64,000 nucleotides of DNA from a virus (IMGVR_UViG_3300017917_005124:31438-95437), one strand, 5' to 3'. Positions 19,245-42,926 are shown, counted from the stretch's first letter. Made by a program: numbers and translations. The notes: generated by a model not told the origin, from the sequence alone.

Positions 19245-20630
19245 ATGGCAGATTTTAATAACAGTACATTTAATTCTTTTTTGCAGGAGGATGAGGATGA
19301 TAGAGAATTGGGTGTACATTATCAAAATAAGTTAATTAATGTATTTTGTAATGATAGGTCTGGATTTTCTGAGCAAATAATAGATGTTCTTAAGAGTGAT
19401 TATTTTGATGCATACCAAAAAATTCTTATTGAGCACGCTTTAAAGTATTATAAAGATAGAAGTACTATTATAAGGTTTGATACCCTTAGGGATAGAGTTT
19501 GTTTTAATGAGAAAGGTATAGTTAAGGAACATCTACTTGGTTTAATTGACAAAATTGAAGAAATAAAAGTTGAAGATAAAGCTGAGGTTCAGGAAACATC
19601 TACAGAATTTTTTGTTAAGAGAAATATGCGTGAGGCTATTCTTAGAGCAGCATCAAATTGGAAGAAAAATAAGTGGGATAGTATTTTGAAGGATTTTGAA
19701 GATGCTCTTAAAGCTGGGCAACCTAAAGATACTGGTCATGATTATTTTAGAGATGTAAATAAAAGACTCTCAAAAGATTTTAGGATACCAATACCTTGTA
19801 TGAATGGTCTTGATGAGTTAATTAGTGGTGGTCTATCTCCAGGTGAACTTGGAGTTGTGATTGCTCCACCTGGAGGAGGAAAATCAATGGCTCTTGTTAA
19901 ATTCGCATCAACTGCATTACTTGCAGGAAAGAAAGTTGTATACTACACCCTTGAGTTATCAGAAGAAGTTGTAGGACAAAGATTCGATGCCTGTATAAAT
20001 GATATAGGACTTAAGCATGTATGGGATTATCCAGAATATATATCAGAAAAGCTTGCAGACCTTGCAGAATTGGGTGGTGGATTAAAAATTAAAGAGTTTC
20101 TTGAGGGTAGTGTAACTGTTAATACTATAAAGGCGCATTTAAAAACTCTTGAAATAGAAGGTTTTATTCCTGATGTAATATTTGTTGACTACCTTGGGCT
20201 TATGAAGCCTCTTGGTTCATATGCAGAAAAGAGACATGCTTTAACAGATGTAGCTGAGGGGCTTAGGAATATTGCAAATAACATGAGGGTACCAATTTGG
20301 TCTGCTCATCAGACAAACAGAACAGCTATTCAAGAAGAGAAAATTAATACTTCACATATTGGAGAATCTCTTGGTATTATAGCAACTGTTGACCTTGCTC
20401 TTGGAATTGGTAGGCCAGATGAGATGAAGGATGAAAATCAAGCTATGCTTGGAATAATAAAAAATAGGCTTGGGCAAGATGGTATTTATAGGCTTATGAT
20501 ATTTGACACAAGAAGAGTTTTTCTTGAATTTGCAAATGAAAACGAAAATGGGATAGCTCAAACTTCTTCTTCGTATGTTGAGCCAGATTTGAATGAAATA
20601 AGTCTTTTTTTAGAACATAAAAATAATTAA
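19245..20630 (+). CDS. dnaB: DnaB-like replicative helicase
   Basis: APPGGGKS, YYTLELSE, IFVDYLGL, SAHQTNR, IIKNRLG. Confidence 0.92.
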   Translation: MADFNNSTFNSFLQEDEDDRELGVHYQNKLINVFCNDRSGFSEQIIDVLKSDYFDAYQKILIEHALKYYKDRSTIIRFDTLRDRVCFNEKGIVKEHLLGLIDKIEEIKVEDKAEVQETSTEFFVKRNMREAILRAASNWKKNKWDSILKDFEDALKAGQPKDTGHDYFRDVNKRLSKDFRIPIPCMNGLDELISGGLSPGELGVVIAPPGGGKSMALVKFASTALLAGKKVVYYTLELSEEVVGQRFDACINDIGLKHVWDYPEYISEKLADLAELGGGLKIKEFLEGSVTVNTIKAHLKTLEIEGFIPDVIFVDYLGLMKPLGSYAEKRHALTDVAEGLRNIANNMRVPIWSAHQTNRTAIQEEKINTSHIGESLGIIATVDLALGIGRPDEMKDENQAMLGIIKNRLGQDGIYRLMIFDTRRVFLEFANENENGIAQTSSSYVEPDLNEISLFLEHKNN

Positions 20631-20957: not shown

Positions 20958-21962
20958 ATGAATGTAGAAAAAAAAGAAGTAAATTTTATTGAACCGATTC
21001 TTAAGCCTAATGATAATAGGTTTGTATTATTCCCAATCCAACATGATGACATTTGGCAATTCTATAAGAAATCGGAGGCTAGCTTTTGGACTGCTGAGGA
21101 AATAGACCTCCTTCAAGACCTTAAGGATTGGGAAAATCTTAATGAAAATGAGAGATATTTTATAAAAAATGTTTTAGCTTTTTTTGCGGCATCAGATGGT
21201 ATAGTAAATGAAAATTTAGCAGAAAATTTTGTAAGCGAAGTTCAATATACTGAAGCGAAGTTTTTTTATGGTTTTCAGATTATGATGGAAAATATACACT
21301 CTGAGACTTACTCTTTATTAATTGACACTTATGTTGCAAAGGATAAAGATGAGAAGGATAGGTTGTTTAATGCAATAGAGACAATACCCGCTGTTAAGAA
21401 GAAGGCTGAGTGGGCTCTTAATTGGATTGAATCAGATAGTTTTGCTGAAAGGCTTATTGCATTTGCAGCAGTTGAGGGTATTTTCTTTTCTGGCTCATTT
21501 TGTTCTATTTTTTGGCTTAAGAAAAGGGGTTTGATGCCAGGACTTAGCTTTTCTAATGAGCTTATATCAAGAGATGAGGGGTTACATTGTGATTTTGCTG
21601 TTCACTTACACAATAATCACCTTGTTAATAAGGTGCCAGAATCAAGAATTAGAGAGATAATAGAATCTGCTCTTGAGATTGAGAAAGAATTTATCACAGA
21701 ATCTTTACCAGTAAGTCTTATTGGAATGAATTCTAAGTTGATGTCAGATTATCTTGAATATGTTGCTGATAGACTTATGATTGATTTGAAGTGTGCTCCT
21801 ATATATAAAACTGAAAATCCTTTTGATTTTATGTCAAATATTGCTCTTGAAAATAAGACGAACTTTTTCGAGAAAAGAGTTGCTGAGTATGCTAAGTCTG
21901 GAGTGGGAAGAAGCGTTGAAGATAATAAGCTATCTTTTGATGGTGATGATGATGATTTTTAA
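20958..21962 (+). CDS. nrdB: ribonucleotide reductase class Ia beta subunit
   Basis: [47 protein letters not shown]. Confidence 0.97.
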
Positions 21963-21985
21963 ACAAACAATACAAACAATATAAA

Positions 21986-24900
21986 ATGAAAGTAATTAAG
22001 AGAGATGGCTCAGAAGAGGGTGTGAAATTTGATAAAATTTCAGCGAGAATAAAAAAACAAACTTACGGATTAGATTCTGAATTTATAGATTATCTTGAGG
22101 TATCTAAGAAGGTTATTTCTGGTGTATATGATGGTGTTACATCTAAGGAACTTGATAACCTTGCGGCAGAGACAGCGGCTGCAATGACAAGGATTCACCC
22201 AGACTATTCAATACTTGCAGCAAGAATTGCAATATCCTCACTAAAGAAAGAAACAAAGAAAAGCTTCAAGGAGACTATAGAAGATTTGTATAATCACATT
22301 AGCAAAGAAACAAATCAACATGCTCCAATGGTGTCAGAGGAATTATATAATCTAGTTCAAAATCATCACAAGAAAATAGAATCAATGATTGTTCATGATA
22401 GAGATTTTGATTTTGAGTATTTTGGGTATAAGACTCTTGAAAGGTCTTACTTATTGAAAATAGATAATAAGATAGTAGAAACACCACAACACTTGTATTT
22501 AAGAGTTGCTCTTGGGATATGGGGAGATAATTTTGAACAAGCTCAAAAGACTTATGAGCTTTTATCAACTGGAGAATTTACTCATGCTACACCAACATTG
22601 TTCAACTCAGGAACTCAGAAACCACAGTTATCTTCATGTTTTCTTGTTGGAAACAAAGGTGATGATATTGATGGGTTATTTGATACATTAAAGGATGTTG
22701 CTAAGATTTCTAAGTGGGCTGGAGGAATTGGTCTACATGTTCATGATGTAAGGGCTAGAGGTTCTTATATTAAGGGCACAGGAGGTAAGTCAGATGGTCT
22801 TTTGCCTATGATGAAAACTTATAACGAAGTTGCAAAGTGGATAAATCAATGTTTTGCTCCAGAAACACTTATTTATACAAATGATGGAGTCAAGAGAATT
22901 GAGGACTTAAAAGAAGGAGAGCTTGTTTTAACTAAGGATGGAAAATATTGTGAAGTTGGAGAGGTTATGAGTTATAATCAAGTTGGAGGTATGCTTGAAA
23001 TTGAAACAAAATCAACGTTAAAACCCCTTAGACTAACTGATGAGCACCCTTTATTCGCATTTAAAAATACATACAATAGAATTGGACGCTCAAATGATGA
23101 GTACATAAATCAATTAGAAAAAGGAATAATATCTCCTAGCTGGATTGACAGTGGTGAATTAAAAGTTGGAGATTTTATTGGAAAAGCAATACCTAAAGAA
23201 GTTATTGATGTGGAATTTTTTTCTGAGGAAGATGCATTTATTTATGGTTTATTACTTGGAGATGGTCATATAAGCGGATATGAAGTAGGTATATCTTTTA
23301 ATGAAATAACTAATTCTGATAGTTTATTTATTGTAAGAAATTACTTAGTTGATAGAGATATTAAATTTTGGGAAGCAAAAAGTGAATCTGAATTTTATTT
23401 ACAAATTAGATTTTCTTTGAGTAATTTACCTTGGTTAAATGAAGATTTGCTATATGATGAACAAGGAAATAAAAGGTTACATAATTCTTTATCTCACTTA
23501 CCTCTAAATAAGAGTTTGCAAATAATTAATGGATTAATTAAATCAGATGGGGGTGTGTATAGAAGAAATGAAATTCATTTTTATAATACCTCAGAAGTTT
23601 TGGTAGAAAATTTATCTTATCAAATTTTGAGATTTAAAGTTCCGACCTATGGTTCTTGGGTTGAGCGAGAAAATAATAGTAAATACATTTTAGAACATGG
23701 ATGTAAAAAAGAGCTCACATTATCTTGCGACCTTAGAATCCCTGCCTTCAAAGAATTATCTGAAATACTTAATATAGAACAGGTTGAGCGTAAAAATTGG
23801 ATTGTTTGGGATGGTATTTTATATACAAGAATAACATCAGTTAAAATGATTGAGGATTATAATGGGAGAGTTTATGATTTAAAAATAAAAGAAAATTTTG
23901 AAGACCCATCCTATACATTATCTTCCGCATTGGTTCACAATGGAGGAAAGCGAAAAGGTTCTTTTGCGGTATATCTTGAGCCATGGCACCTGGATGTAGA
24001 GGAGTTTATAGATTTGCGAAAAAACCACGGTAAAGAAGAAGTTAGGGCGAGGGATTTGTTTTTAGCTCTTTGGATTCCTGATTTATTTATGAAAAGAGTT
24101 CAAGATGACTTAGAGTGGACATTAATGTGTCCTAATGAGTGTCCAGGCCTTTCTGATGTGTATGATATTTATCCAGAATATGATGAGGAAGGTGAAATAA
24201 CAAATTCTGAAGAAGTAAATTTAGCATTTACTGAATTGTATGAAAAGTATGAGCTAGAGAATAAAGGTAGAAAAACTATTAAGGCAAGAGAACTTTGGGC
24301 CAAGATACTTGATGCTCAGATTGAAACTGGAACCCCATATGTTTTATACAAAGATGCTGCAAATAAAAAGAGCAATCAAAAAAATATAGGAACCATCAAG
24401 TCTTCGAATTTATGTACAGAAATAATGGAAGTTTCAACTCCAGAAGAACAAGCTGTATGTAACTTAGCTTCTATAGCTCTTCCTAAGATGGTTGTTATTC
24501 CTCAAGGAAAAGTTAAATCTAAAGACAAATCCTTGAGAGGATATGATTTCCAAAGGCTATATGAAGTTGCATATCAAACAGCAGTCAATCTTAATAGAGT
24601 AATTGATATTAACTGGTATCCAACAGAAGAGACAAGAAGGTCAAATATGAGACACAGACCTATTGGGATAGGTGTTCAGGGCTTAGCTGATACATTTGCT
24701 ATGCTTGGGTTACCTTTTGAATCTGATGCAGCCAAAAAGCTTAATAAGGATATTTTTGAGACAATCTACTTTGCAGCTATGACAGCTTCAAATGATATGT
24801 CCAAGAAATCATATAGAGCCGAATCAGCTTCTACTGAAGATGTTAGCTTCACAATTGGGGCGTACTCAACTTTTGTTGGCTCTCCATTGTCTGAAGGAAA

Positions 24901-36088: not shown

Positions 36089-37444
36089 ATGAAAAAATTA
36101 TTTAAAAAATATTTCTGGACTTACATAATAGTATTTGCAGCATTGGGACTTTCTGGTTCTGCTGCATATTTTTCAATTAGTGGTCTATCTAAATTGTTTG
36201 CAGGAGCCTCAACTCAAATTATAATAATGGCATCTTTTATTGAGTTAGCTAAGATAATAACAACAGCTGCTCTTCATAGATATTGGGATAGTGTTGACAG
36301 AATTTTAAAATGGGTCCTTTCTATTATGGTAGTTGTAGTTATGCTTATTACTAGTTCTGGTATATATGGCTTCTTGGCTGATGCATATACAAAGACGTCT
36401 ACTGAAATGGATAAAATAGATGGGGAAATTTCTCTTATAGAAAACAAAAAGGAACAAAAGAAGTCTCAAATATTAAGTCTTGAGAGTGTAAAGAATTCTA
36501 AAGACAAGAGGATTAGCTCCTTGATAAGTATAAGAGGTCAACAAGAATCTAGAATTGATGCTCTATATGAAAAAAATAGAGGAATTAAGGGCGCACAATC
36601 AATGATTCAGCAATCTAATTCTGAAATAAAAACTCTACAAACTGAAATAGATACTTTAGTGGCGAAAATTGAAAGAATTAATTCTGAAATAGGCCAAATG
36701 GATATAGAAATTTTAGATTTAAAAAATTCAGATGTAGCTTCAGAAATAGGACCTCTTAAATATATGTCAAATGTTGTTGGAAAACCAATGGAGAGTATAA
36801 TAAATTGGTTTATTATGATGATTATTTTCGTTTTCGACCCTTTGGCTATATTGTTGATTATAATGGCAAATAATGTATATGACAAAGCTTCTATTAAGGA
36901 GAGTGGCGAGGATAATTCGAGTAAAGTAGATAATACAAATTTGGTTGTTGATGATAATATGGAAATTGAAGAACTTTTTTTAGGTGATGTTGACGTTAAT
37001 TCTAATAAGAGTGATGATTCAGAACTTCAAAATAAACCTTCAATTGATGACATTGAGTTATATGAAGAACACCCCTCAAAAGAAAAAAAAGCAGAGGTGG
37101 TTGAATATATAGAGGGTGAAGATGGTAGCTTCAAAAGAAGTATTGAAAATAAGGAAGATATGTCTTCTGTTATAAGGGGAATAGATTCAAATCCATTATA
37201 TTTAAAATTATTAGATATTTTCTTTTTAGATGGACAAAGAAAAGTGGGAGATGTAATACCTCCTTATGATGTTTTTTTAAAAGACGTTAGAAATAGTGGC
37301 GTTGATTGTCAAGAAAAGATAATAAAAAATTTTTTAACAATCTCTAATTTGTTAGGAATTGTTAATATGACAGATAAGAATAGTGTTAAGATAATTAAAG
37401 ATTACGAATCATCTAAGCAAATTATATCACTTGTTTCTAAGTGA
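36089..37444 (+). CDS. membrane protein with a long coiled coil
   Basis: Three N-terminal TM segments, coiled coil, EIGPLKY, TM IFVFDPLAI, acidic tail. Confidence 0.8.
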   Translation: MKKLFKKYFWTYIIVFAALGLSGSAAYFSISGLSKLFAGASTQIIIMASFIELAKIITTAALHRYWDSVDRILKWVLSIMVVVVMLITSSGIYGFLADAYTKTSTEMDKIDGEISLIENKKEQKKSQILSLESVKNSKDKRISSLISIRGQQESRIDALYEKNRGIKGAQSMIQQSNSEIKTLQTEIDTLVAKIERINSEIGQMDIEILDLKNSDVASEIGPLKYMSNVVGKPMESIINWFIMMIIFVFDPLAILLIIMANNVYDKASIKESGEDNSSKVDNTNLVVDDNMEIEELFLGDVDVNSNKSDDSELQNKPSIDDIELYEEHPSKEKKAEVVEYIEGEDGSFKRSIENKEDMSSVIRGIDSNPLYLKLLDIFFLDGQRKVGDVIPPYDVFLKDVRNSGVDCQEKIIKNFLTISNLLGIVNMTDKNSVKIIKDYESSKQIISLVSK

Positions 37445-37556
37445 AAAAAAGACAAGCTATATAGCTTGTCTTTTTTTTATTAATATTTTTTTATTATATT
37501 GATTATAGCTATAATTTATATTTTTCTTTTAATTATTTATAATAAACACATAAGTC

Positions 37557-37760
37557 ATGAAATTGGTATCTAAAACAATAGAAAAAGTGGTTATAGAATT
37601 AACTACATATGAAATAGAGAATAATGGATTTGAGTACTGCTGGGATAAGATTAGAAGAACATATAAATCTGAGGATTATGATGTTGAATCTATTAGAGCT
37701 TCTAGTAGTAATAAAAATATAATTTTTATAGAATTAATATCTAATAAGACTAAAAAATAA
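37557..37760 (+). CDS. small hypothetical protein
   Basis: TATTTATA at 37534 precedes the ATG. Confidence 0.65.
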   Translation: MKLVSKTIEKVVIELTTYEIENNGFEYCWDKIRRTYKSEDYDVESIRASSSNKNIIFIELISNKTKK

Positions 37761-37843
37761 TTTTTCATTTAATATCTTTGTTTTCTTTTATTTTTAAAAT
37801 AAAATTATTAAATTTGTTTTAAACACAAATAAAAATAATTATA

Positions 37844-39190
37844 ATGGATAGAAGAGCGTTTGGGCCTGAAGATGAAGATGAATCAAGTATTGATAAAGTA
37901 AAGAAAAATAGCAAAAGCGAAACTCCAATTTTAGACCACTACGGAAAAGACTTAACTGAAATAGCAAAAAAAGGGGGTCTTGACCCAGTTGTGGGAAGGG
38001 ATTCAGAAATAGATAAGTTAATTCAAATTCTAAATAAGAGAAGGAAAAATAATCCTGTTCTTGTTGGAGAATCTGGTGTTGGTAAGACAGCAGTTGTAGA
38101 AGGGCTTGCTATTAGAATTGCAAACAAACAGGTTGACAGATGGCTCTTTAACAAGAGGGTTATTGAATTGAACTTTACTAGCATTGTTTCTGGGACAAAA
38201 TATAGAGGTGAGTTTGAACAGAGAATGGAGGATATTCTTAAGGAAGCTAAAAATAGTCCTAATGTTATAATTTTCATTGATGAGTTGCATAATGTGGTTG
38301 GAGCTGGTAGTGCATCAGGTTCAATGGATGCGTCAAATATTATTAAACCAGCTCTTGCAAGGGGTGAAATTAAAGTTATAGGGGCTACAACAGTTGATGA
38401 ATATAAGAAAATTATAGAGAGTGATAGCGCCCTTGAGAGAAGATTTCAAAAAATATATATAAATATACCATCTAAGGAGGATACTCTTTTGATACTTAAG
38501 CAATTAAGAGATAGATATGAGGATTATCATAATGTGGTATATAGTGATGAGGTTCTTGAAAAGTGTGTTGAATTTACTGATAGGTATATTAATTACAGAA
38601 ATTTCCCAGATAAGGCTATTGATGCAATGGATGAAGTTGGTTCTATAGTTAAGCTGAAAAATACAGTGGTCCCAGATAGTATTAAGAAATTAGAAAAGGA
38701 ATTAGGCAGTATTATCTCTAGCAAGAAAGATGCAGCTAAGAGTCAAAAATATGAAGATGCAGCTAAGTTTAGAGACAAAGAAAGGGAGATGAATAAAAAA
38801 ATTGAGGATGAAAGGGTTAAGTGGGAAGAAAAATTAAAAAAGAATAAAATAAATGTAACAACTCAGCATGTAGCTGAAGTGATATCTGGATATACTGGAA
38901 TTCCACTTATAAAGTTAACTGACGATGAAAATAAAAAGCTTGTTGGTATGCAAGAGTTTTTATCAAAAAAAGTTATAGGCCAAGAAGAGGCTGTGACTAA
39001 GGTGTGTGAGGCAATACAGCGCTCAAGACTTGGGCTTCAAGACCCAAATAAGCCAATTGCATCATTTTTATTGCTTGGCTCAACAGGTGTTGGTAAGTGT
39101 ATTTGTTCTGATACTCAAATAGTTATTAGAAATAAGGCAACTGGATTGACAGAAATTTTATCAATAGAAGAATTAAAAAAAAGAACTTAA
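37844..39190 (+). CDS. clpC: ClpC-like ATPase, N-terminal part, fused to a 30-aa split-intein N-fragment
   Basis: NBD1 GESGVGKT, FIDELH, ALERRFQ; UVR-like YEDAAKFRDKE; NBD2 Walker A GSTGVGK followed by CICSDTQIVIR...SIEEL then stop. Confidence 0.92.
   Translation: MDRRAFGPEDEDESSIDKVKKNSKSETPILDHYGKDLTEIAKKGGLDPVVGRDSEIDKLIQILNKRRKNNPVLVGESGVGKTAVVEGLAIRIANKQVDRWLFNKRVIELNFTSIVSGTKYRGEFEQRMEDILKEAKNSPNVIIFIDELHNVVGAGSASGSMDASNIIKPALARGEIKVIGATTVDEYKKIIESDSALERRFQKIYINIPSKEDTLLILKQLRDRYEDYHNVVYSDEVLEKCVEFTDRYINYRNFPDKAIDAMDEVGSIVKLKNTVVPDSIKKLEKELGSIISSKKDAAKSQKYEDAAKFRDKEREMNKKIEDERVKWEEKLKKNKINVTTQHVAEVISGYTGIPLIKLTDDENKKLVGMQEFLSKKVIGQEEAVTKVCEAIQRSRLGLQDPNKPIASFLLLGSTGVGKCICSDTQIVIRNKATGLTEILSIEELKKRT
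39098..39187 (+). mobile_element. split intein N-fragment (IntN, 30 aa)
   Basis: Block A-like CICSDTQIVIRN directly after the Walker A Lys. Confidence 0.88.
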
Positions 39191-39278
39191 TACTATTCCC
39201 AATTCCTTTGCTGCCTAAAATACCTTAACTACTTATTGGAAAAACATTTTTTAAAACTATTTGTAGTAGAATTAAAAA

Positions 39279-40853
39279 ATGTTTTTTATGATTATCATAT
39301 ATAATAGAAAGAGAGTTGAATTTATAGATTTGTTCCCTATGGTTAACTTGTTTGTTAATTATTTAAAAGAAAATTACTCTTCATTAAATTTTAGTAATAA
39401 AGAATTTTATAAAAAAATAATTAAAGCATATGATTTCTTTTCACAGGTAGATGACGTAGTTCAATATACTAGGTTGACTAGGTATCTGCATAAGGGTTTT
39501 AATTTTAGTTATAAAAATATTACCAAGAAAGAATTTTGGATTGAGAGGGGTTGGTCAGAGCAAGAATCTGCAGATATTATGCGAGAGGATAAATTAAAAA
39601 GAGTAAATAAACAAATTATTACACAACAAGAAAAAAATAAAAATAAGAATGAGTTAAAATTAGACAATACATTAAAAGAATTTAGATTTATATCTGGTAA
39701 ATTCTTTTCTTCAGAATATCCAAAGTGTAATCATTGTAAAAATGAATTATTATTAAAAAAAATTAATATAAATAATTTAGATGACAAATTTTATTATAAA
39801 ATTATAAAATGTTCAAATGAAGAGTGTAAGACTAATTATATGAATAAAAAAGATAAATACATGTCATTTTTGCCAATAGATATTGCAGAAGAAATTTTAA
39901 CAAAATTTTCAGAACAAGCTAAAGAAAGAAGTATATTATCTATTGAAAGTTGGATTAAAAAAGGTTTATCAAAAAAAGAGGCAAAGATTGAGGTTTTTAA
40001 TATACAATCAGAAAATTCTAAGAAAGTAAAAAATAGATTTGTAGCATCAAAGGAGAATTTAAAAAAACTTGGAAAAACTGAAGAAGAGATAATAAATATT
40101 TGTACGACTCCAACTCAAATTGATTTTTGGATTAAAAAAGGGTTATCTAAAGAAGAGTCAATAATTAAAATAAGAACCCTCCAAGAAGAAGCAAGTCGAA
40201 AGTTTGCTAAAAAGAGGGTAGATAATCCAGGATTATATTCTGCTGTAACTCAAACTCAAATTGGATATTGGTTGAATAAGGGTTTTTCAGAAGAAGAGGC
40301 AAGGGGCAGGTTGTCAGAAAGACAGTTAACTTTTAGTTTAGATATTTGTATAGAGAAATATGGGGAAGAAGAAGGTAGGAGAATATTTAATGAGAGGCAA
40401 AATAAGTGGAATAAGTCATTAAATGAAGGTGGAAATTTAAAAATAGGCTATTCCAAGTGTTCTCAGGATTTATTTAATTCTTTAATTGAGAGTTATAGTT
40501 TTGAAGAATTAGATGATGTTTTATTTGCTACAAAAGGTGGTGAATTTAAAATACAAAGAGAAGAAGGTGGGATTTGGATGTATGATTTCGTTGATTTGAA
40601 TAGAAAAAAAATAATTGAATATCATGGAGATATGTATCATGGAAATCCGAAAAAATATTCTGCTGGAGATTTCCCTCACCCTTTTAGAAAAAATATAACC
40701 GCACAAGAGATGTGGGATAAAGATGGGTTAAAAATAAAAAATGCTGAGGAACAAGGGTTTAAGGTGTTTATTGTTTGGGATTCAGAATATAGGTGGGGAA
40801 ATAAACAAAAAGTTATTGATAAGTGTCTTGATTTTTTGGATATTAACAAATAA
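39279..40853 (+). CDS. free-standing Vsr/DUF559-like homing endonuclease
   Basis: Repeated WxxKG(L/F)SxEEA helices. C-terminal YDFVDLNRKKIIEYHGDMYHGNP...GFKVFIVWDSE. Confidence 0.8.
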   Translation: MFFMIIIYNRKRVEFIDLFPMVNLFVNYLKENYSSLNFSNKEFYKKIIKAYDFFSQVDDVVQYTRLTRYLHKGFNFSYKNITKKEFWIERGWSEQESADIMREDKLKRVNKQIITQQEKNKNKNELKLDNTLKEFRFISGKFFSSEYPKCNHCKNELLLKKININNLDDKFYYKIIKCSNEECKTNYMNKKDKYMSFLPIDIAEEILTKFSEQAKERSILSIESWIKKGLSKKEAKIEVFNIQSENSKKVKNRFVASKENLKKLGKTEEEIINICTTPTQIDFWIKKGLSKEESIIKIRTLQEEASRKFAKKRVDNPGLYSAVTQTQIGYWLNKGFSEEEARGRLSERQLTFSLDICIEKYGEEEGRRIFNERQNKWNKSLNEGGNLKIGYSKCSQDLFNSLIESYSFEELDDVLFATKGGEFKIQREEGGIWMYDFVDLNRKKIIEYHGDMYHGNPKKYSAGDFPHPFRKNITAQEMWDKDGLKIKNAEEQGFKVFIVWDSEYRWGNKQKVIDKCLDFLDINK

Positions 40854-40870
40854 ATAAGTAAATTTGAAGT

Positions 40871-41299
40871 ATGAATAATAAAGAAGTAAGCGATAAGCCA
40901 CAATTATTCTTTTTTGATAAAAAAGAATTTGATGGATTTAAAAAGATAATTGAAACTAAAAAAATTAGTGATTATGAAGTATTAACAGATGATGGTTTTG
41001 TTGGAATTGAAAATTTGCATACAACAACCGAGTACCAAGTTTATGAGTTAAAGACAAAATCTGGTAAAACATTAAAATGTGCAGATAATCATATTGTTTT
41101 TGATTATAATATGAATGAAGTGTTTGTGATAAATCTATCTGTTGGAGATTTAATATTTTCAAAAAATGAAAATAATGAATTATCATTAGAAGAGGTAGAA
41201 CATGTTATTGATTTAGGATACAAGGAAGAGATGTATGATTTAGAATTAGACTCTGATTCTAATAGAAGGTATTTTACAAACGGAATTCTTTCTCATAAT
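40871..41299 (+). mobile_element. split intein C-fragment (IntC)
   Basis: Contains blocks B, F and G; ends HN with Thr+1 at 41300. Confidence 0.9.
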
Positions 41300-42064
41300 A
41301 CTCATCTTGCAAAACAACTATCAAGTTTTATGTTTCATAAGGAAGATGCGTTTATAAGGTTTGATATGAGTGAATATATGGAAAAATTCACTATTTCAAA
41401 ATTAATTGGTTCCCCTCCAGGTTATATAGGTTACGAAGAAAAGGGCATACTTACGGAGGCTGTTAAAAATAAACCATATTCAATATTATTGTTTGATGAA
41501 ATTGAAAAGGCGCACCCAGATATTTTTAATATATTTTTACAAATACTTGATGATGGTATTTTAACTGATTCATCGGGTAGAGAAATAAATTTCAAGAATT
41601 GTATAATCATTATGACATCGAATATTGGTACAGATAAAATAATGGGAAAGAAAACTCTTGGCTTTGGTGTTGCTAATGATGAGCATTCAGATATAACTTC
41701 TATTGTTGGTGATGAGCTTAAAAAATACTTAAGACCAGAGCTTATAAATAGAATTGATGAAAAAATAGTATTTAAACCTCTTACTCAAGATAATATATCT
41801 AAGATTGTGGATATTGAAATTGATAAGACAATTAAAAGAATATCTGAAAAAGGGTATGATATTATAATTTCTAAGAGCGTAAGGGATTATATAGTTGAGA
41901 TTGGGTATGACAAAGAGTATGGTGCAAGGCCTCTTAAAAGAGCTATTACTACGAATATAGAAAATGTAATCTCTCAATGTATACTTAAAAATGACATTAA
42001 AGATGGCGATAAGATTAAATTATCTTATGATAAAAAAAATAAAAAAGTCATAGCAAAAATATGA
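40871..42064 (+). CDS. clpC: split intein C-fragment (143 aa) fused to the ClpC C-terminal part
   Basis: YEVLTDDGF, CADNH, MYDL, GILSHN|THLAK, then RFDMSEY, GSPPGYIGY, LLFDEIEKAH, LGF loop, GARPLKR. Confidence 0.92.
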   Translation: MNNKEVSDKPQLFFFDKKEFDGFKKIIETKKISDYEVLTDDGFVGIENLHTTTEYQVYELKTKSGKTLKCADNHIVFDYNMNEVFVINLSVGDLIFSKNENNELSLEEVEHVIDLGYKEEMYDLELDSDSNRRYFTNGILSHNTHLAKQLSSFMFHKEDAFIRFDMSEYMEKFTISKLIGSPPGYIGYEEKGILTEAVKNKPYSILLFDEIEKAHPDIFNIFLQILDDGILTDSSGREINFKNCIIIMTSNIGTDKIMGKKTLGFGVANDEHSDITSIVGDELKKYLRPELINRIDEKIVFKPLTQDNISKIVDIEIDKTIKRISEKGYDIIISKSVRDYIVEIGYDKEYGARPLKRAITTNIENVISQCILKNDIKDGDKIKLSYDKKNKKVIAKI

Positions 42065-42618
42065 GAACCTTAAAGATAGATTTAGGTGGTAGAATTATTA
42101 TTGACAATTCTCCAGTTGATATAAACCAGCTGGAGAACAAGTCAGAATTTATATCTAGCATATTAACTTTAGATTTAGAGCTTGCAGATAATATTAGTGT
42201 TGCTGATATTATTCATTTTTTTTATGACGTAAGAGAGCTTATTAAGGATGTATTATCTGAAGAGTATGAATCAGTGAGAGCAATGGTTGTTTCATCTGTT
42301 TTACCTAGAAATTATAAAGCACTTAGAGTGTATAAGTCGTTTAAAATAGAAAAAGAAGGGAGTGATGATGAAGAGTTTATATACTTAATTCCAGAAATAG
42401 AAATAATTCCATGTGAATCAATGGAGGAAGGAGTTAGTAATATCGGAAATCTACCGATTATAATAGATGAAAATATAATTCTTATAAATGAAGATTTTAA
42501 CACAGGTAAAAATGTTACAATAAAATCTAAGTCAAAAATAAGTTTATTTGACCTTATGAGATGTATTTTTGATGAGCTCCCTGCTTTAATTAAAGATGGT
42601 ATGATATTTGCTTATTAA
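42061..42618 (+). CDS. hypothetical acidic protein
   Basis: 185 aa; ATGA overlap with the clpC C-part. Confidence 0.75.
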   Translation: MRTLKIDLGGRIIIDNSPVDINQLENKSEFISSILTLDLELADNISVADIIHFFYDVRELIKDVLSEEYESVRAMVVSSVLPRNYKALRVYKSFKIEKEGSDDEEFIYLIPEIEIIPCESMEEGVSNIGNLPIIIDENIILINEDFNTGKNVTIKSKSKISLFDLMRCIFDELPALIKDGMIFAY

Positions 42619-42620
42619 GT

Positions 42621-42926
42621 TTATTTTTGAAATTTATATATTTGAACCAAAAATGCTATTTTGATAGCATCATCAATTTCCTTGGGTATATTACATCTAG
42701 ATTTTGGTTCATGCTCGGTTCCAGATTTCCATTCATCACCCTCATCAAGACTAGGTTTTCCTGAAGCTTCATAATAATCGAGAATTGCGCCAGTTAAATA
42801 ACTTAGTTCTACTGCTGAGTTTGTTGAATTATCTTCTTCATGTTCTATGTTTTTTATTGAATCATTAAAGCCTTCTGTTTCATCGTAATTTTTAGATTTT
42901 TTACCTTTACCTGATTTTTTAGACAT
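42621..42926 (-). CDS. hypothetical protein
   Basis: Start MSKKSGK at 42926 follows the minus-strand TATTTATA at 42951-42958. Confidence 0.7.
   Translation of the reverse strand: MSKKSGKGKKSKNYDETEGFNDSIKNIEHEEDNSTNSAVELSYLTGAILDYYEASGKPSLDEGDEWKSGTEHEPKSRCNIPKEIDDAIKIAFLVQIYKFQK

Follow-up and report, generated by a model that had tools for sequence, protein, structure and literature searches.

We analysed a fractured gene for a ClpC-like protein in IMGVR_UViG_3300017917_005124:31438-95437, a 64,000-nt stretch of viral DNA (hereafter the window) that lies within a 95-kb IMG/VR virus record whose completeness is put at 38%. The window has a base composition of about 30% G+C and carries five tRNA genes, and in a DNA search of phage databases its best matches were two uncultured phages of about 640 kb each. 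The clpC locus is made up of three open reading frames (ORFs) on the plus strand. ORF1 encodes the N-terminal part of the ClpC-like protein (the N-extein), which ends ...LLLGSTGVGK (SFLLLGSTGVGK) and runs into the N-terminal half of an intein (IntN; CICSDTQIVIRNKATGLTEILSIEELKKRT) before a TAA stop. ORF2 encodes a free-standing endonuclease. ORF3 opens with the C-terminal half of the intein (IntC), which ends ...YFTNGILSHN and is followed by the remainder of the ClpC-like protein (the C-extein), beginning THLAKQLSS.... The spacer between ORF1 and ORF2 is 88 nt (or 97 nt, depending on the ATG chosen for ORF2) and that between ORF2 and ORF3 is 17 nt. An earlier note on this DNA had described the same gene anatomy, and its coordinates and lengths were reproduced to the residue from the ORF list and the raw sequence.

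Table 1. Features of the fractured clpC locus, in window coordinates.
Feature	Position	Strand	Description
TAAATTTG box	37809..37816	+	27 nt upstream of ORF1 ATG; likely the -7 promoter element of the clpC locus
ORF1	37844-39190	+	448 aa: 418-aa ClpC N-part, 30-aa IntN, stop
ClpC N-extein	37844..39097	+	418 aa; nucleotide-binding domain 1 (NBD1), middle (UVR) domain and start of NBD2 as far as GSTGVGK
IntN	39098..39190	+	30 aa, from Cys1 through two strands to the first helix; a TAA stop follows
RNA hairpin	39239..39287	+	first ATG of the endonuclease frame lies in the 3' arm, which ends at 39288, the ATG likely to be the true one
ORF2, free-standing endonuclease	39288..40853	+	521 aa; the upstream ATG at 39279 would give 524 aa
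Vsr/EDxHD catalytic domain	about 40500-40850	+	C-terminal part of ORF2
TAAATTTG box	40859..40866	+	4 nt before ORF3 ATG; doubtful promoter
ORF3	40871-42064	+	397 aa: 143-aa IntC, 254-aa ClpC C-part
IntC	40871..41299	+	143 aa; first residues (about 23) a disordered leader, then block B (CADNH), block F (MYDLELD) and block G (NGILSHN)
ClpC C-extein	41300..42064	+	254 aa from the Walker A Thr+1: remainder of NBD2, LGF loop, D2-small domain

Homology searches placed ORF1 and ORF3 in a single host protein. Pfam matched ORF1 to AAA, AAA_lid_9 and UVR, and ORF3 to AAA_2 (profile positions 16-165 of 166) and ClpB_D2-small, together with a sub-threshold intein match. PHROG 4871 ('ATP-dependent protease') was covered by ORF1 over profile positions 158-510 and by ORF3 over 510-754, while the N-extein aligned with residues 150-551 of B. 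subtilis ClpC (E 5e-130), ending at GPTGVGK, and the C-extein with ClpC residues 552-796/802 (552-796 in B. subtilis ClpC; E about 1e-71 to 1e-74). Because the matches to PHROG 4871 (510/510) and to B. subtilis ClpC (551/552) meet, the two extein halves abut exactly, with no gap; ORF1 and ORF3 thus each encode half of a single ClpC-like protein whose second Walker A motif is cut between Lys and Thr. This exact abutment fits the proposal of the earlier note that splicing would restore GSTGVGK, followed by T, in a ClpC of 672 aa (418 + 254). With its two AAA+ modules, middle domain and D2-small domain, the host protein belongs to the class I Clp/Hsp100 group. No match to Clp_N was found, however, and the alignments start only at ClpC residue 150 and PHROG position 158; lacking the Clp N-terminal repeat domain, the protein is therefore better called ClpC-like than canonical ClpC. 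In the C-extein, an LGF tripeptide aligns with the IGL loop of ClpA in a ClpB/ClpA chimera. The bacterial ClpC structures of B. subtilis (3j3s) and S. aureus (6em8) resemble the phage protein in their pair of AAA+ modules, their middle/UVR and D2-small domains and the LGF tripeptide found where the ClpP-docking loop lies. Unlike them, the phage ClpC has no Clp N-terminal domain and is encoded in two pieces, and in the comparison no ClpP was found for it in the partial phage genome (38% complete).

We then considered the two segments inserted at the Walker A junction. On its own, IntC matched the Pfam family Intein_splicing (PF14890) with 36.4 bits, above the gathering cut-off of 35.8; the 30-aa IntN, which is too short, gave no Pfam match by itself. 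When a profile of the IntC family was compared with the PDB, it matched VidaL (6vgv; E 5.8e-15) and the consensus atypical intein CatC (6dsl; E 1.2e-5), the second of which was also matched by the single IntC sequence (E 0.002), and the extein part of the profile aligned with T4 gp17 from residue 167. The AlphaFold 2 (AF2) model of IntC had a predicted local distance difference test score (pLDDT) of 86.7; residues 9-20 scored below 50, and regular structure is absent up to residue 25. Its best Foldseek match was again VidaL (6vgv; root-mean-square deviation 1.8 Å), and the first 50 of the 54 matches at E ≤ 0.001 were all inteins or related Hint domains (BIL, Hedgehog). IntN resembles the N-terminal portion of contiguous family members, and also the C-terminal tails of IntC-headed proteins, which are the middle pieces of three-part genes. 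Joined together, IntN and IntC align from end to end with eight contiguous inteins of 150-162 aa that reside in TerL, DnaB-like and AAA hosts, the break falling in the variable linker of these relatives, past the first helix. All the residues needed for class 1 splicing are present: Cys1 of IntN, CADNH, MYDLELD, and the terminal SHN with Thr at +1. Across the family, the columns for Cys1, the His of block B, the Asp of block F, the C-terminal HN and Thr+1 either do not vary or are conserved to at least 90%.

Taken together, the sequence motifs, the HINT fold and the PF14890 match above its cut-off identify a class 1 intein, and its distribution over separate genes, with a 30-aa IntN and a 143-aa IntC that has its own ATG and carries blocks B, F and G, identifies it as atypically split, a type in which IntN measures 15-37 aa (PMC13014065). 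The earlier note had proposed an atypically split intein in the NBD2 Walker A motif, and the Pfam match, the profile matches to VidaL and CatC, the VidaL-like fold and the collinearity with contiguous relatives bear this out. The characterised inteins AceL-TerL, GOS-TerL, Cat (6dsl) and VidaL (6vgv) likewise combine a short IntN with a long IntC; the IntN of Cat is also 30 aa long, and the break past the first helix corresponds to the S2 site of AceL-TerL and GOS-TerL (PMC13014065). The clpC intein, which is known from sequence and models, differs from the characterised atypically split inteins in its host, ClpC NBD2 rather than TerL or UvrD, in the Thr at +1 and in a longer IntC (143 aa) with a disordered leader. 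The ORF1 and ORF3 products would be spliced in trans.

To place the intein in its family, we searched 1.84 billion cluster representatives with HMMER. This returned 748 clusters related to IntC at E ≤ 0.001, 389 of them at E ≤ 1e-10. Among the 150 nearest members listed, most matched from about protein residue 2-20, over IntC residues 24-143; those relatives are split forms too. Block G could be read with a simple pattern in 99 members, in which it takes the form (Y/F)-(T/S)-N-G-I-L-S-H-N or a close variant, followed at +1 by Thr (68), Ser (29) or Cys (2). The hosts assigned by Pfam among the 90 nearest clusters included T4-type TerL (29), DnaB-like helicases (13), Clp AAA_2 proteins (8), ABC transporters (3) and a clamp loader, and clustering of the C-exteins added ClpX-like and SMC/SbcC-like hosts. 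In every case inspected, the insertion lies past the GK of the P-loop, and the family occupies GK(T/S) sites in TerL, DnaB-like, Clp, ABC and clamp-loader genes. One ClpC C-part that opens with an IntC of this family (protein P0106, 771 aa) has an apparent second, contiguous intein further downstream (...KLHG, then CFTPEMNVLMHDGS...).

ORF2 gave no Pfam match, either whole or as its catalytic domain alone, and a single-sequence search of the PDB returned nothing useful, so that an alignment profile was needed. A profile of four sequences matched I-Bth0305I (3r3p; E 4e-4) and Vsr (E 4e-3). In the AF2 model of ORF2 (pLDDT 87.5), the C-terminal domain had as its best Foldseek matches Vsr (1vsr/1cw0), with a probability of 1.00, and I-Bth0305I (3r3p), with a target-normalised template-modelling (TM) score of 0.61. 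ORF2 also matches PHROG 22677 and has at least 299 relatives among database proteins, mostly of about 500 or about 410 aa and unannotated, one of which was named a very-short-patch-repair endonuclease by its source; the homologues, together with a 521-aa database record, indicate the start codon at 39288. Residues D433, I443, E444, G447 and H451 are invariant across 84 homologues, and D433, E444 and H451 correspond to the Asp, extra Glu and His of the Vsr-like family of Dassa et al. (PMC2677866). The fold and these three conserved residues make ORF2 a Vsr-like/EDxHD endonuclease, as had been claimed for the gene between the clpC halves. The EDxHD homing endonuclease I-Bth0305I shares its catalytic domain by profile and fold and keeps the same Asp, Glu and His, but it is encoded by a group I intron in recA (PMC3239194), whereas ORF2 is free-standing within a split intein and has a larger and different part for putative DNA binding.

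This N-terminal part, residues 1-390 (window 39288-40460), has a high-confidence predicted fold with a zinc-ribbon-like CxxC...CxxxC motif and four W-x-x-K/R-G-x-S-x-x-E helical repeats. It matched nothing among the PDB fold hits listed for the whole model, the region not having been searched alone. These roughly 390 residues probably form a modular array that binds DNA. The phage record contains no paralogue of ORF2. In IMG/VR, members of the ORF2 family lie between IntN-tailed and IntC-headed genes at clpC NBD2 (L084-L089 and L099) and at clpC NBD1 (L084), and they also occur without detected flanking intein halves (L094-L097 and L101). Four further loci (L090:2604-7024 and L091-L093) combine an ORF2-type endonuclease with a short-N split intein in the P-loop of an ATPase of about 750 aa (...ANQGGK, then C...; Thr at +1), a candidate host that looks SbcC/Rad50-like.

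With regard to expression, the TAAATTTG 8-mer was found 15 times in the window against 15.0 expected, so that its presence alone is not above chance. The more general pattern TAnnTTTG, which we take to be the -7 promoter consensus of Bacteroidota, ended 0-80 nt upstream of 10 of the 50 gene starts on the plus strand, compared with 4.1 +/- 1.9 at random positions, a modest enrichment consistent with a Bacteroidota-type host promoter. At eight of these ten starts the spacing is 20-63 nt, a range that includes the 27 nt at ORF1 and excludes the 4 nt at ORF3. In related loci, TAnnTTTG lies 12-17 nt upstream of the IntC gene in L086, L087 and L089 and is absent from nine others. The earlier note's claim that ORF3 has a box of its own thus stands as regards its presence, while a role as promoter is weak, the motif being neither enriched nor typically spaced. 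From the spacing and recurrence of the boxes, co-transcription from the ORF1 box is likelier than a dedicated ORF3 promoter, and no terminator-like site was found within 37500-42700, the only one nearby lying upstream, at 37440-37481. The clpC locus is probably transcribed as one unit. The hairpin at the endonuclease start has a predicted energy of -15 kcal/mol (z -4.0), and none of 200 shuffled sequences folded as well. Start-codon hairpins that differ in sequence were found in four of five related loci (L020, L084, L085 and, more weakly, L089), and translational-control hairpins have been described in 15 of 16 endonuclease leaders of fractured genes (Dassa 2009, PMC2677866).

To find empty and occupied alleles of the gene, we scanned IMG/VR with ORF3, kept 80 loci from 271 relatives and mapped the five parts onto each. 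The nearest relatives, L005-L008, whose exteins are 80% and 79% identical to those of the window, carry an uninterrupted clpC in which the junction codons are adjacent (GGTAAA then ACA, giving GSTGVGK then THLAK). The more distant L004 shares the fracture; its endonuclease is 49% identical, and it has two additional small ORFs. Here the identity to the window is 66% for IntN, 69% for IntC, and 69% and 62% for the exteins; conservation of the fracture at this distance, with the intein as conserved as its host, implies long purifying selection on all parts. The clpC genes of L009-L011 and L013 are also fractured, with an endonuclease of only 91 aa that amounts to the catalytic core, and in L020 an intein of this family, together with an endonuclease of this type, occupies the Walker A motif of NBD1. 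In all, clpC is split in eight of the 80 sampled phage loci (about 10%), at NBD2 in six, including L019, which is cut by the contig end, and at NBD1 in two.

A quick maximum-likelihood tree of 61 distinct clpC exteins requires at least five gains or losses of NBD2 occupancy on well-supported branches. On this tree the window pairs with an empty allele (support 99), and the occupied L010 and L011 are nested among near-identical empty alleles. An active homing element would produce such patchy occupancy, as would frequent precise loss. Two other arrangements were seen in clpC. L071:882-3758 carries a different short-N split intein in NBD1, inserted one turn earlier in the P-loop (GEPG, then CGKT). 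It has Cys at +1 and an IntN of 24 aa, and the gap of 360 nt holds no endonuclease gene. In L084:483-6508 and L089:1031-6259, clpC is divided into three pieces by split inteins of the family, one in each Walker A motif; the two IntC are 54% identical in L084 and 67% in L089, the two IntN of L089 are 38% identical, and the first gap of L089 has no endonuclease gene.

In light of these data, it is likely that the clpC-like gene of a jumbo phage was invaded by a cassette of a split mini-intein and a free-standing Vsr/EDxHD endonuclease, and that trans-splicing yields the 672-aa ClpC. The cassette would have entered a gene for a class I Clp/Hsp100 protein without N-domain and separated the Lys codon of its second Walker A motif from the Thr codon. 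One transcript from the ORF1 box would then give rise to three proteins, with the start codon of the endonuclease partly masked by the hairpin. The IntN tail of the ORF1 product and the IntC head of the ORF3 product would associate to complete the HINT fold, and class 1 chemistry would be expected to follow, with an N-S acyl shift at Cys1, trans-esterification to Thr+1 and cyclisation of Asn143. Excision of the intein halves would leave a ClpC with an intact GSTGVGKT P-loop. During co-infection, ORF2 would cut intein-less clpC alleles and so drive homing, the cassette being copied in by repair. What the data show directly is the gene anatomy, the family to which each of the three parts belongs, the exact fit of the halves, the empty alleles and the patchy occupancy of the clpC tree. 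Several observations weigh against this reading. IntC has a disordered leader of about 23 aa and five further residues that its contiguous relatives lack; block B reads A-D-N-H instead of the textbook T-x-x-H, though A-D-N-H is the norm in this family; no ClpP gene was found in the 95-kb record, which is only 38% complete; and splicing, cleavage and co-expression are all inferred.

The best surviving alternative, in our judgement an improbable one, is that the element has decayed: its intein halves no longer splice, and the phage tolerates a fractured clpC that is dead or dying. Phages can often do without accessory genes, the extra IntC residues would suit such a history, and the activity of the intein is a prediction from its sequence. 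Set against this, both exteins are full length, with all their motifs and no stops, the catalytic residues of the intein are intact, and the layout is shared with L004 in spite of the divergence of the exteins, the intein being equally conserved. It is less probable still that the intein halves act only as a dimerisation handle, with the ClpC parts working unligated. A precedent is a fragmented phage enzyme, the NrdA of Aeh1, which is reportedly split by an endonuclease gene and assembled through remnants of a mobile element (PMC3045599). In the phage ClpC, however, a HINT domain of 173 aa would sit inside the P-loop between Lys and Thr, so that ATP binding should be blocked in the unligated protein, and the locus has kept all the splicing residues, which pure dimerisation would not need.

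Two further explanations concern the DNA and the RNA. Since the locus comes from a single metagenomic contig, it might be an artefact, in which errors of assembly or sequencing, or use of the wrong genetic code, have broken up a contiguous intein that has an endonuclease domain nested in it. This we regard as very hard to credit: from the start of IntN to the end of IntC, the ORF1/ORF3 frame contains 84 stops of all three kinds, which rules out a frameshift and recoding alike and leaves room for neither a continuous frame nor an alternative genetic code. In addition, the endonuclease is read in a different frame and has a start, a spacer and a hairpin of its own; the three-gene layout recurs in more than 10 independent contigs from different samples; and IntC stands near the protein start in most of its 150 nearest relatives. 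The weakest proposal, that the 2.2 kb between the exteins form a group I or group II intron with an endonuclease ORF, as in the case of the Vsr-like I-Bth0305I of the recA group I intron (PMC3239194), has next to no chance of being right, given that an Rfam scan of 37400-42700 found no intron family, and no intron-type RNA, even at E ≤ 1, and that splicing at the RNA level would cut out the coding sequence of both intein halves, on which selection clearly acts.

Beyond the proposed invasion of this one clpC gene by the cassette, we considered where the cassette might move. In a tree of IntC, the inteins of the window and L004 group with one hosted by an ABC transporter and not with the main ClpC group (119 columns, weak support). 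Mapping host labels onto this tree needs 36 changes against a minimum of 10, which, given the same 119 columns and poor resolution, is a hint only. One tentative reading, which we think has perhaps a minority chance, is that the intein-endonuclease cassette is a P-loop generalist that homes not just into its own allele but also into the conserved GxxGxGK(T/S) coding sites of unrelated ATPase genes, and that it has invaded clpC NBD2 more than once; on that reading, its targets would comprise TerL, DnaB-like helicases, ClpC NBD1 and NBD2, ClpX-like proteins, ABC transporters, the clamp loader and SbcC-like proteins.

Other parts of the record and the flanks of clpC yielded some additional observations. 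Further matches to Intein_splicing lie at window 23810-23899 and, upstream of the window, at G000:C1:9894-10889, 19472-20574 and 21233-23461. Some of these matches are broken by many stops, and other genes of the same phage may be fractured too. Next to clpC, a 67-aa ORF upstream (window 37557-37760) and a 185-aa ORF downstream (42061-42618, its ATG overlapping the clpC stop) are both kept beside the gene in L004 and L020. The 185-aa ORF had no match in a PHROG search. These two flanking ORFs could encode partners or adaptors of a ClpC that lacks the N-domain.

The clpC locus, with co-oriented, adjacent halves, a free-standing endonuclease between them and exact restoration of the host on splicing, is a fractured gene in the sense of Dassa, London, Stoddard, Schueler-Furman & Pietrokovski 2009 (PMC2677866), with a break point of the terminase type. 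The phage loci of that study likewise have enzyme halves on the same strand, each with half of a split intein, a Vsr-like free-standing endonuclease between them and a hairpin at the endonuclease start, and the terminase locus has the same unusual break, its 122-aa C part holding every N motif except N1. The clpC locus differs in the N-terminal region of its endonuclease (about 390 aa), which is much larger than in those loci, and in its host. The 2009 hosts are eight enzymes of DNA synthesis, repair and packaging with no Clp/AAA+ unfoldase among them, and Clp is unmentioned (PMC2677866). A literature search for inteins in ClpC, ClpX or ClpB returned nothing relevant, which, given the incomplete coverage of the search, does not prove absence. 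A Clp/AAA+ unfoldase as the host of a fractured gene is thus apparently unpublished. The earlier note called the host unusual, but it is not rare and is frequent in metagenomes: Clp proteins account for eight of the 90 nearest intein clusters, and the split is present in eight of 80 clpC loci. A similar qualification applies to the suggestion that a 30-aa IntN with Thr+1 is attractive for protein semisynthesis. The appeal is real, yet the combination is not special, the family having hundreds of members with Thr or Ser at +1 and characterised relatives with an IntN of 15-30 aa already existing (PMC13014065).

As a naturally split Cys1/Thr+1 intein with an N piece of 30 residues, the clpC intein is an added candidate for peptide-based protein ligation, and the matched empty and occupied clpC alleles would permit a direct test of homing. 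The three-piece clpC genes, with their two related split inteins, pose the testable question of how cross-reaction and mis-pairing are avoided. The locus extends the fractured-gene layout of 2009 from enzymes of DNA metabolism and packaging to a motor of protein quality control. One intein family recurs at GK(T/S) in many ATPases that are unrelated to each other; this wider pattern may prove a more useful lead than the locus itself and, together with the three-piece clpC, raises the testable question of ectopic homing.

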